64,000 nucleotides of DNA from positions 192,001-256,000 of the IMG/VR virus record IMGVR_UViG_3300005326_000040; one strand, given 5' to 3'. The notes beneath the pieces are model-generated. The model was given only the letters and a program-made list of their open reading frames with translations, was not told the DNA's origin and searched no databases. How positions within the stretch are numbered: position 1 is the first letter of the stretch; the number at the start of each line of letters is the position of its first letter. Made by a program: the position numbers and the translations under genes. This stretch comes from a virus. Lineage: Duplodnaviria > Caudoviricetes. This document shows positions 6,623-44,571 of the stretch, piece by piece.

Positions 6623-7408
6623 ATGGGCGACATTATTCGTTATCCTAGAACCTTACACATACGTGGCTCACGTAAAACTGGAGATGATTTTGAACTAGAA
6701 GATGTTTCTTTTGAGGAAGCGCTTCAAGGCAAGTATGTTGTTTACGAGGCGAAAATTGACGGTTCAAATTGTGCCGTTAGTTTTGAAGACTCACGAATGA
6801 TTCTTCAGTCTCGTGGTCATGAGCTTCGTGGCGGGCCAAGAGAAAGAGAATTTCAGCAGCTTAGAATTTGGGCAAACAGATATCAGCATGACTTGTTTGA
6901 TATTTTAGGCAATCGTTATATCTTTTATGCAGAGAACATGTTTGCAAAACATACTGTATTTTACGATAACCTTCCTCATTGGATATTTGAATTTGACATT
7001 TTTGATAAGGAAAGAAGACTTTTCCTTTCTACCAAAGCTCGTCGTCGTCTTCTAGAAGGTCTTGAGTATGTAGCTGCTCCTGTTGTATATGAGGGGACAG
7101 CCACAACACTAGAGCATTTGAAATCTTTTATTGGGCGTTCGGCATATAAGACTGACAATTGGAAGGAGAATTTGGGGCTTCAAGCTGAAAGATGTAATTA
7201 TGATGTCGCTCTTGCGATAGCTCAAACCGATCAATCTGATTTGGATGAGGGAATTTATATCAAGGTTGAAACTGAAGAAGAAACGGTTGGGCGATATAAG
7301 TTTGTAAGAGACAGCTTTACGAATAGCATTTTGAATCAAGGGTCTCATTGGCATGATAGGACTTTGATTCCTAATCAGCTGGCAGATAGTCACTGCTTTA
7401 AACTGTAG
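6623..7408 (+). CDS. ATP-dependent RNA ligase family protein (Rnl2/PNKP-ligase-like)
   Basis: YPRTxH N-terminus, adenylylation motif EAKIDGSN, FEFDIFD, DEGIYIK, RYKFVR. Confidence 0.85.
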   Translation: MGDIIRYPRTLHIRGSRKTGDDFELEDVSFEEALQGKYVVYEAKIDGSNCAVSFEDSRMILQSRGHELRGGPREREFQQLRIWANRYQHDLFDILGNRYIFYAENMFAKHTVFYDNLPHWIFEFDIFDKERRLFLSTKARRRLLEGLEYVAAPVVYEGTATTLEHLKSFIGRSAYKTDNWKENLGLQAERCNYDVALAIAQTDQSDLDEGIYIKVETEEETVGRYKFVRDSFTNSILNQGSHWHDRTLIPNQLADSHCFKL

Positions 7409-38797: not shown

Positions 38798-38914
38798 ATT
38801 TTGATACCTTTTGTTGGGGTGTGTTTGGATATATAACGCTCTGAAACATACGCGACGAATAAAAACTACTAATACTGATGTATTTTTGCACAACCACAAC
38901 AAGTGGAGTATATA

Positions 38915-38997
38915 GGACAAGATGCTTAGCGTAAGCACAGCAACAGATGGACGCAGATTGGAGGGACAAATTAGTTCCTCTAGGCGTCTCCTTGCCC
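38915..38997 (+). ncRNA. putative structured RNA/leader ahead of tRNA cluster 1
   Basis: Closing stem GGACAAG/CTTGCCC encloses hairpins TGCTTA/TAAGCA and GGACGC..TTGGAGGGAC/GTTCCTCTAG..GCGTCT. Confidence 0.45.
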
Positions 38998-39036
38998 TTG
39001 AATTATCGTATTAAAGCTTCACCAAATTTCGATTTA

Positions 39037-39119
39037 GGTGGAGTGTGTGAGTGGTTAAAACAGCTTGACTGTAAATCAGGTCCCTTCGGGGTTCGTCGGT
39101 TCAAATCCGGCCTCCACCA
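39037..39119 (+). tRNA. tRNA-Tyr(GTA)
   Basis: Acceptor GGTGGAG/CTCCACC, anticodon loop CT-GTA-AA, long variable arm, TTCAAAT T-loop; no encoded CCA. Confidence 0.93.
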
Positions 39120-39135
39120 CAAAGGAAAATTTTAT

Positions 39136-39277
39136 AGGTCGTTGGTCGAGTGGTCGAAGACGCCTCACGGTGAGTGGGGAGTGGCACGGTTTCCGGAAGC
39201 CGAACAGAAACAGTCTGGATGTTCGCGCGAACAAAAAGATTGTTGCCACCTCATTGGTTCAAATCCAGTACGGCCTA
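39136..39277 (+). ncRNA. tRNA-like RNA with a 73-nt variable-arm insertion and an atypical anticodon loop
   Basis: Acceptor AGGTCGT/ACGGCCT, class II D arm, stem CCTCA/TGGGG with loop CGGTGAG, T arm ATTGG-TTCAAAT-CCAGT. Confidence 0.75.
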
Positions 39278-39288
39278 CTATTAAATTA

Positions 39289-39365
39289 GGGACGGTAGCT
39301 CAGTTGGTTAGAGCGTTTGCCTGATAAGCAAAAGGTCGGCAGTCCGATTCTGCCTCGTCCCACCA
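39289..39365 (+). tRNA. tRNA-Ile(GAT)
   Basis: GGGACGG/TCGTCCC, loop CT-GAT-AA, encoded CCA; T-loop TCCGATT is non-canonical. Confidence 0.9.
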
Positions 39366-39382
39366 TAAGAAAGTAAAACAAT

Positions 39383-39739
39383 ATGTCATGTGGAAGATTT
39401 AGCGGCCCTACCGCAATGCATTGTGAAGATTGTGATTATTATGGGTCGGATAAATGTCCAGCCCACGTTTCTTTATTAGAGGAATTGAAAAAGAGTAGGG
39501 ATGATAAAAAGAAGAAATGTCCTGGAAAGTGTTATTGCGGGAAAGATTGTATTGTAAATCACGAAAAGGTAGCAGAGCGATGTCACTGTGACGGCATTCA
39601 TAATATGTGTCGTGGAACATGTGAAAAGCATAATAAAGCATGTGTGTGCATCGCTAGACATAAAGGGAATTGTGACTGTCTTCAGTGCTTTTTGGGCGAC
39701 GGAGCGGTTGATCATTTGAAGAAGTTAGGTAAGTTCTAA
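39383..39739 (+). CDS. very Cys/His-rich hypothetical protein
   Basis: About 17 Cys in 118 aa. Confidence 0.6.
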   Translation: MSCGRFSGPTAMHCEDCDYYGSDKCPAHVSLLEELKKSRDDKKKKCPGKCYCGKDCIVNHEKVAERCHCDGIHNMCRGTCEKHNKACVCIARHKGNCDCLQCFLGDGAVDHLKKLGKF

Positions 39740-44493: not shown

Positions 44494-44571
44494 GGTGGTG
44501 GTAGCCAAGAGGTCTAAGGCGCTGGATTGTGGCTCCAGTTATCGCGGGTTCAAATCCCGTCCATCACCCCA
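44494..44571 (+). tRNA. tRNA-His(GTG)
   Basis: G-1, GTGGTGG/CCATCAC, C73, loop TT-GTG-GC, encoded CCA. Confidence 0.95.

Follow-up and report, generated by a model that had tools for sequence, protein, structure and literature searches.

The 142-nt stretch between the tRNA-Tyr and tRNA-Ile genes of this large phage probably encodes a tRNA-derived non-coding RNA, and its branched variable arm of ~70 nt has no match in the literature that we searched. It has the shape of a tRNA, is homologous to tRNAs, lies within a tRNA array, carries stems under selection, and has an anticodon loop that is not conserved among its copies. Our preferred interpretation, in which our confidence is about even, is that the element is the gene for a selected, non-decoding tRNA mimic that arose from a class II (serine-type) tRNA and would be matured like a tRNA; the role proposed for it below is an inference. 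The phage is represented by an IMG/VR record of 338,055 bp, ~97% complete by estimate, and the window, meaning the whole stretch of 64,000 nucleotides that was analyzed, corresponds to bases 192001-256000 of that record. In window coordinates, the element, its parts, and the tRNA genes that matter for the argument are the following:

39136..39277, + strand: whole tRNA-derived element, 142 nt, between tRNA-Tyr and tRNA-Ile (sequence, fold, homologs, ARAGORN on a trimmed scaffold)
39136..39161, + strand: 5' acceptor strand, U8 G9, and class II D arm (3-bp stem, 11-nt loop with G18 G19)
39163..39179, + strand: anticodon-arm equivalent, 5-bp stem CCUCA/UGGGG with loop CGGUGAG at 39168-39174
39181..39249, + strand: variable-arm domain, closing helix P1 (39181-39186 with 39244-39249) around P2 and P3
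39187..39202, + strand: P2 hairpin with invariant CCGG tetraloop, in all three copies
39204..39239, + strand: 36-nt module, A-rich linker and P3 hairpin with GCGC loop (39220-39233); 2-nt boundary ambiguity (GA repeat)
39210-39216 with 39237-39243, + strand: outer helix P3a, only partly kept in copy B
39253..39269, + strand: T arm with canonical loop TTCAAAT
39270..39277, + strand: 3' acceptor strand and discriminator A73; CCA not encoded
39037..39120, + strand: tRNA-Tyr(GTA), upstream neighbor in the same array, 15 nt before the element (ARAGORN, Rfam)
39289..39365, + strand: tRNA-Ile(GAT), downstream neighbor, 11 nt after the element (ARAGORN, Rfam)
44495-44571: tRNA-His(GTG), a normal tRNA (ARAGORN)

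The original prediction had described a tRNA-shaped element of 142 nt between the two flanking tRNAs, and all of the arms and hairpins that it listed are present. The acceptor stem pairs AGGTCGT (39136-39142) with ACGGCCT (39270-39276) and includes one U.G pair; the discriminator is the A at 39277, with which the T at 39135 could pair. The D arm, GTC-GAGTGGTCGAA-GAC, occupies 39145-39161, and the T arm reads ATTGG-TTCAAAT-CCAGT. The acceptor, T, and D stems measure 7, 5, and 3 bp, respectively, and the D loop has 11 nt; the element displays the hallmarks of a tRNA cloverleaf: a 7-bp acceptor, a D arm with G18 G19, a 5-bp anticodon stem, and a UUCRANY T loop. The variable region, 73 nt long (39180-39252), is closed by GTGGCA/TGCCAC and holds the hairpins GGTTT-CCGG-AAGCC and (T)GTTC-GCGC-GAAC(A). 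At minimum free energy, the 142 nt fold into a cloverleaf with a three-way junction (P1, P2, and P3) in the variable arm, and the anticodon arm tightens to a 6-bp stem and a 5-nt loop; the folding-energy z-score of this single sequence, -1.7, is not significant alone. Five G.U pairs in the element would be A.C mismatches on the opposite strand, and the RNA is therefore assigned to the + strand. A protein-coding reading was rejected: the ORFs at 38947-39324 and 39065-39289 cross tRNA genes, and the indels among the homologs are of 1, 3, and 4 nt.

Run on the window, ARAGORN called both flanking tRNAs but not the 142-nt element, and no tmRNA. Rfam, searched at gathering thresholds (29 bits for the tRNA family RF00005) and also at E values up to 10, likewise called the neighboring tRNAs and gave no RF00005 match for the element. 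As a diagnostic, positions 53-105 of the element were deleted so that P1 was capped by a 4-nt loop, and ARAGORN then reported a class II tRNA of 90 nt, ‘His(gtg)’. An independent detector thus recognizes the scaffold as a tRNA, and it is only because of its large arm that the element escapes detection. A short paralog in a related phage (copy A, L002:2878-2982) scores 39.3 bits with the Rfam tRNA model, above the threshold of 29, so that homology, and not shape alone, marks the element family as tRNA-derived. Among the other Rfam families at E up to 10, none came near its threshold in 38900-39500, and there was no ribozyme or self-splicing match: YrlA (RF02553) reached 18.1 bits against a threshold of 69, in a match that takes in the element's T arm and the D arm of tRNA-Ile, and the permuted tmRNA model reached 14.4 bits against 47. 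Apart from tRNA itself, then, neither Rfam nor ARAGORN assigns the element to a known family. Since standard tRNA finders and Rfam miss the element, such genes stay unannotated in large phage genomes.

Homologs were reached through relatives of the neighboring deoxynucleoside kinase gene, of which there are many on large phage contigs. One of these contigs, the 256-kb NCBI metagenomic phage contig L002, encodes a kinase and an R2K ATP-grasp protein that are 77% and 72% identical, respectively, to those of the window phage, and it carries two copies of the element:

L002:2229-2366, minus strand: copy B, 138 nt, with a long variable arm, directly before tRNA-Ile(GAT)
L002:2878-2982, minus strand: copy A, 105 nt, without the 36-nt module, keeping P1 and P2 in a 35-nt variable arm

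The homologs with covarying stems that had been anticipated thus exist, as two copies in L002, with no more among 48 jumbo-phage records searched with a covariance model. Copy A follows a 221-aa ORF that is absent from the window phage and precedes a tRNA-Ile-like gene, and the pairing of element and tRNA-Ile seen in the window phage occurs twice more in L002. The 36-nt module is present in the window element and copy B and absent from copy A. The genome contains it only once, so that it is no dispersed repeat, and its inner P3 hairpin is kept with one wobble change. The earlier description of the variable arm as an inserted domain is therefore apt for the module, which is present or absent among copies, but not for the arm as a whole, since the short paralog already has a 35-nt arm with the CCGG hairpin.

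The L002 cluster shows several further peculiarities. Directly after copy A, the tRNA-Ile-like gene at L002:2804-2872 (minus strand) keeps its acceptor, D, and T arms and the loop CUGAUAA, scoring 42.8 bits with the Rfam tRNA model, and has lost its anticodon stem, all five pairs of which are broken; an ‘element plus tRNA-Ile’ unit is duplicated in this phage, with one Ile copy non-decoding. Two ORFs, L002:2987-3652 and L002:1387-2082 (both minus strand), sit within the tRNA cluster and are missing from the window phage. For the 231-aa ORF, an HNH match stays below threshold (E = 0.0036), and the 221-aa ORF contains, as judged by eye, a Cys/His motif like that of HNH proteins and has no Pfam match; the cluster may be a target for homing-type genes. 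L003 and L004, Logan contigs from near-identical strains, end exactly within the first 25 nt of the element, as would be expected if this stretch were repeated in those genomes.

In the window phage, the array lies on the + strand, divergent from the kinase gene on the minus strand. Its tRNA-Tyr is class II, i.e. of the bacterial type, and CCA is not encoded by any tRNA of the array. ARAGORN finds 19 tRNA genes in the whole genome, or 21 with introns allowed, with no tRNA-Ser among them; the set includes a suppressor with the anticodon UUA as well as interrupted genes for tRNA-Asn (57-nt insert) and tRNA-Leu(CAA) (294-nt group I intron). The suppressor gene, at G000:C1:28046-28121 and outside the window, adjoins tRNA-Lys and the insert-bearing tRNA-Asn (ARAGORN). 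Between the kinase gene and tRNA-Tyr runs a leader, 38908-39024 (+), that is conserved in four phage lineages, with 72-81% identity to L002, L021, and L022 and a near-invariant core around GACGCAGATTGGAGGGACAAATTAG; it looks like another structured RNA heading the tRNA operon. A 151-nt contig identical to window positions 39031-39181 occurs in a 2025 freshwater metagenome run from a study other than that of the probable groundwater source sample, and so this phage or a near-identical one is present in a second data set. Enzymes that act on tRNA ends are encoded in the genome, and neither RtcB, nor a tRNA splicing endonuclease (tRNA_int_endo), nor a class II synthetase core (Ser/Thr/Pro/His type) was found in it:

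window 6734-7303 (+), G000:C1:151730-152269, and G000:C1:296282-296665: two RNA_ligase genes (PF09414) and one CCA-type nucleotidyltransferase gene (PF01743)

In the course of events that we infer for the transcription, processing, stability, binding partner, and role of the element, it would be co-transcribed with tRNA-Tyr and tRNA-Ile. RNase P would cut its 5' end and 3' trimming would follow, by the same enzymes that mature the flanking tRNAs. Because no tRNA in the array encodes CCA, we propose that CCA could be added afterwards, either by the host enzyme or by the CCA-type nucleotidyltransferase of the phage. The mature product might persist as a stable L-shaped RNA of ~145 nt, held together by the intact tRNA core. 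Its intact acceptor, D, and T parts would allow tRNA-binding proteins to hold it, and the combination of a hairpin without conserved anticodon and a 69-nt three-way-junction arm would make it unusable on the ribosome. The working surface may be made up of the conserved features, which are the D arm and 5' strand, the hairpin with the CCGG loop, and the variable-arm junction. The most likely use would be as a decoy, sponge, or platform for a protein that recognizes tRNAs with long variable arms, such as a synthetase or a host tRNA-targeting toxin. This proposal builds on the many tRNAs, the two RNA ligases, and the CCA enzyme of the phage, together with published phage tRNAs that counter tRNA-targeting defenses. 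The position between two genuine tRNAs means that the mimic is unneeded for processing of the transcript; it is no positive support for a decoy role. A further point that weighs against this account is that the genome encodes no class II synthetase core of the Ser/Thr/Pro/His type.

It is unlikely, in our estimate, that the element is instead a cis-acting processing signal of the ‘tRNA punctuation’ kind, whose tRNA-like body recruits RNase P and the 3' enzymes and whose excised RNA has no role. Such a signal would tolerate the unconstrained anticodon loop, and both L002 copies, each accompanied by a tRNA-Ile or Ile-like element, do lie between protein-coding ORFs. The window element, however, is placed between two genuine tRNAs that already give cut sites, and neither the covarying variable-arm hairpin with its invariant CCGG loop nor the identical 25 nt at the 5' end of all copies would be explained. 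A pure processing signal is therefore unlikely in the window phage, where genuine tRNAs flank the element, and more plausible in L002, where the copies stand between ORFs.

Selection on the structure was originally suggested from pairings that seemed compensated within one sequence, and the two homologs bear this out. In an alignment of the three sequences with a hand-drawn structure, 95.7% of 117 pair cells have standard pairing, and compensatory double changes are seen at five positions, namely pair 1-72 of the acceptor stem, two pairs of P2, and one pair each of P1 and the T stem. Column shuffles reached the observed values in two of 500 cases, and a control in which the 3' partners were slid by 1-3 columns gave 35-50% pairing and at most one double change; these covariation statistics are thin, coming from only three copies in two closely related phages of one clade. 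Acceptor pair 1-72 is A-U in the window element and G-C in L002, and the compensated pairs of P1 and the T stem both go from A-U to G-C. P2 combines its two compensated pairs with two wobble changes in 5 bp, and the remaining changes in the acceptor stem all fall on the 3' strand, with pairing kept through wobble. Without a supplied structure, RNAalifold gives the acceptor and anticodon stems, the T arm, P1, P2, and the inner hairpin of P3; the outer helix of P3, of which copy B retains only a part, is missing from its prediction. Positions 2-26, comprising the 5' acceptor strand and the D arm, are identical in all three copies. The copies are equidistant, with 10 unique differences each over the 101 columns common to all, which implies that A and B have been present together since roughly the time at which the two phages parted. 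On the branch to the window phage, six of the 10 changes make up three compensated pairs, one falls in a pair kept by wobble, two are in the anticodon loop, and one is in a linker.

These comparisons also bear on whether the element could be a decaying, functionless duplicate of a class II tRNA, kept by chance or by linkage in a tRNA cluster that is a hot spot for insertions, which we regard as improbable. Decay would account for an anticodon loop that is degenerate and different in every copy, for the T-stem mismatch of copy B, and for the setting in L002, where the neighbor at 2804-2872 is a tRNA-Ile-like gene without an anticodon stem and the cluster has gained extra ORFs. The broken G53:C61 pair in the T arm of copy B, together with the incomplete pairing of its outer P3 helix, may be a sign that constraint is relaxed in one or more copies. 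Yet the element is better conserved between the phages than the adjacent functional tRNAs (81-87% identity versus 73.5% for tRNA-Tyr and 72.5% for tRNA-Ile, with flanking proteins at ~72-77%), the changes in its stems are compensated or preserve pairing by wobble on all three branches, and copies A and B have endured side by side over roughly the time that separates the phages. As far as the aligned copies allow a judgment, this conservation and the compensated stems argue against a decaying pseudogene and would fit a selected tRNA mimic.

The presence of the module in some copies and its absence from another raise the question of an interrupted tRNA gene, in which proteins would remove either the 36-nt module or the whole inner variable arm to leave an RNA of 90-105 nt resembling copy A. 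We consider this quite unlikely. Other insert-bearing tRNAs do occur in this phage group (the 57-nt tRNA-Asn insert, the 294-nt group I intron of tRNA-Leu, and a 72-nt insert in a class II tRNA of L002), the phage encodes two RNA ligases, and ‘enigmatic introns’ that are so far unexplained have been described in the tRNAs of Lak megaphages (Devoto et al. 2019, PMC6784885). However, P1 is by inspection a continuous 6-bp helix without the two 3-nt bulges, staggered around a 4-bp helix, that mark the exon-intron junctions of an archaeal-type (bulge-helix-bulge) tRNA intron, the genome has no splicing endonuclease and no RtcB, and no ribozyme family matches, the 36-nt module being too small to self-splice (the whole arm has 69 nt). 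In addition, the module is not a repeat, and its removal would still leave a non-decoding loop. The insert-bearing phage tRNAs (those of Lak, the 57-nt tRNA-Asn of this genome, and L002:7496-7652) resemble the element in having short structured inserts of 36-72 nt in very large phages, in presence or absence between copies, and in lacking any known splicing mechanism. They differ from it in that their inserts lie in the anticodon loop of decodable tRNAs, whereas the module of the element lies in the variable arm and its anticodon loop is unusable with or without the module. The L002 gene among them, a 157-nt class II tRNA gene with a 72-nt anticodon-loop insert at L002:7496-7652 (minus strand), is also present at L004:4539-4695 (minus strand); it was called by ARAGORN with introns allowed, matches our family model R1 with E = 0.005, and represents a third kind of short tRNA insert in the phage group. 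A link between the element and the 57-nt tRNA-Asn insert was considered and dropped: the sole shared 8-mer, GAACAGAA, occurs 22 times in the genome and is attributable to chance.

The anticodon loop is the least conserved part of the element. The stem is kept in all copies, and the loop, which holds the fastest-changing columns, is CGGUGAG (7 nt) in the window element, UGUGAAUU (8 nt) in copy A, and UGUU (4 nt) in copy B; two of the three copies have the arm tightened to a small loop. The broken loop with G rather than U at position 33 that had been noted in the window element is indeed in the sequence, but the GTG at 34-36, which had hinted at tRNA-His, is not conserved among these loops of three different lengths. 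Given the variable loop length and the lack of a shared anticodon, the element is very probably not a decoding tRNA, in agreement with the original prediction, which had also pointed to the normal tRNA-His elsewhere in the window. Shifted anticodons, UGA or UCA, were rejected: there is, by inspection, no register in which every copy has U33 in a 7-nt loop.

The D arm is of the serine type. A 19-mer of the element, TGGTCGAGTGGTCGAAGAC, is the D-arm region of bacterial tRNA-Ser genes, and it recurs exactly in tRNA-Ser(GCU/GGA) genes of Bdellovibrio-like bacteria, Bipolaricaulota, and Megasphaera, all of the exact matches in bacteria being Ser-type, as well as in a phage tRNA-Ser (L013). The scaffold of the element is about equally close to tRNA-Ser and to the neighboring tRNA-Tyr, and so it does not decide between a serine-type ancestor and an origin by tandem duplication of tRNA-Tyr. 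With bacterial tRNA-Ser the element shares the 7/5 acceptor/T branch, the 3-bp D stem, the 11-nt loop GAGUGGUCGAA with G18 G19, the T loop UUCAAAU, a helical variable arm (with a 6-bp closing helix in the element), and the identical 19-nt D-arm region. Unlike bacterial tRNA-Ser, it has no U33, a loop length that varies between copies, and a variable region of 73 nt with a three-way junction in place of 15-25 nt. The discriminator is A73 in all three copies, versus G73 in every retrieved bacterial tRNA-Ser with the D-arm 19-mer, and none of the three copies has a serine anticodon (NGA or GCU) in register. The exact 19-mer is also carried by two Ser-type class II tRNAs with non-serine anticodons, L014:1712-1796 (minus strand, GUU) from a 259-kb IMG/VR phage and L126:2428-2522 (minus strand, GCG) from a Caulobacteraceae MAG, which by their sequences are candidate missense tRNAs of the allo-tRNA kind.

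It is very improbable that the element is an irregular working tRNA, charged by an anticodon-blind SerRS or by TyrRS through G34-U35 and A73 and reading CAY or another codon for missense or recoding like allo-tRNAs or nematode V-arm tRNAs: it does have a class II body with GUG at 34-36 in a 7-nt loop, and Ser-type tRNAs with non-serine anticodons do exist (GCG in L126, GUU in L014; PMC5389517), but position 33 is G and not U, the homologs have loops of 8 and 4 nt with no anticodon in common, a 69-nt branched arm has no precedent on the ribosome, and A73 stands against the G73 of all bacterial tRNA-Ser with the same D arm. The allo-tRNAs and ‘polycistrons of irregular tRNAs’ described by Mukai et al. 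(2017, PMC5389517) are Ser-type tRNAs with long V arms and non-serine or unusable anticodons; some lie in phage tRNA clusters, some are charged but unused in translation, and they have been proposed to be regulatory non-coding RNAs. The element resembles these irregular, non-translating Ser-type tRNAs. The defining features of allo-tRNAs, however, are an acceptor/T branch of 8/4 or 9/3 and a Sec-like D arm in which a long stem carries a tetraloop (PMC5389517). With its 7/5 branch and a D arm of the standard class II type, the element falls outside that definition, and no allo-tRNA is known to have a branched variable arm of its size.

The family to which the element belongs appears to be narrow, judging from searches whose patterns required exact matches to conserved words and could have missed diverged members. 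In IMG/VR, a pattern of D arm, long gap, and T loop gave no match, the D-arm 19-mer gave coding matches and ordinary class II tRNAs only, and the CCGG hairpin combined with the T loop gave nothing beyond ordinary tRNAs. The D arm combined with the CCGG hairpin gave three chance matches in JGI metagenomes, none of them tRNA-like, and a 25-mer of the element had no match in species genomes. On the phage’s own genome, family model R1 scored the window element at 163 bits as the sole copy. A weak R1 match (14 bits) outside the window, at G000:C1:81949-82102, has no acceptor stem; it consists of a D-arm-like word, a strong terminator-like hairpin, and a perfect T arm followed by AGGCCCGCCA, and it resembles the 3' half of a tRNA without the matching 5' acceptor strand, ~300 nt after tRNA-Leu(UAA). 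The 48 records searched with R1, from more distant jumbo phages with an R2K gene, contained normal-length tRNAs only. Synteny through the kinase gene showed the arrangement to be common only to L002 and near-identical strains: L021 and L022 have the leader RNA and tRNA-Tyr and lack the element there, and L005, L006, L008, and L023 have no synteny. Three DNA sequencing runs contained the same phage and unrelated tRNA genes but no further variant.

A tRNA body that is recognized by tRNA-processing enzymes and does not decode is familiar from mascRNA and from the tRNA-like RNAs of gammaherpesviruses. The element shares with these, and with the tRNA-like module of YrlA, a processable tRNA body without decoding, and it is unlike them in its class II body and its large conserved variable-arm domain; nor does it adjoin the Ro60 operon. 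A branched variable arm of ~70 nt is not known to us from any natural tRNA or tRNA-like RNA, and our literature searches for tRNAs with such an arm returned no match, which is an absence of matches and not proof. A parallel in design is artificial: Ponchon and Dardel reportedly engineered ‘tRNA scaffolds’ for the expression of structured RNAs in 2007. As in those constructs, the element presents a structured domain on an intact tRNA body that gives processing and nuclease resistance; the engineered form replaces the anticodon arm, whereas the element is natural and uses the variable arm. It is possible, though we advance this only tentatively, that the element is a natural ‘tRNA scaffold’, in which the class II body gets the CCGG hairpin and an optional second hairpin processed, CCA-tagged, and protected, and that the resulting chimera acts in a conflict over tRNAs. 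It could, for example, soak up a host nuclease or nucleotidyltransferase toxin specific for tRNAs with long variable arms, or hold a synthetase.

Phage tRNA genes have been reported to counter tRNA-cleaving host defenses (PMC10264068, PMC11464382, PMC11555353), and these cases all concern tRNAs that have kept their decoding function. The element presents a contrast, with a tRNA body under selection, decoding given up, and a conserved extra domain gained. The scaffold reading, if true, would define a new class of phage counter-defense RNA. Moreover, should the RNA be stable and protein-bound, it would mean that phages evolve regulatory or decoy RNAs with tRNA bodies, and that the variable arm of a tRNA tolerates a branched domain of ~70 nt.
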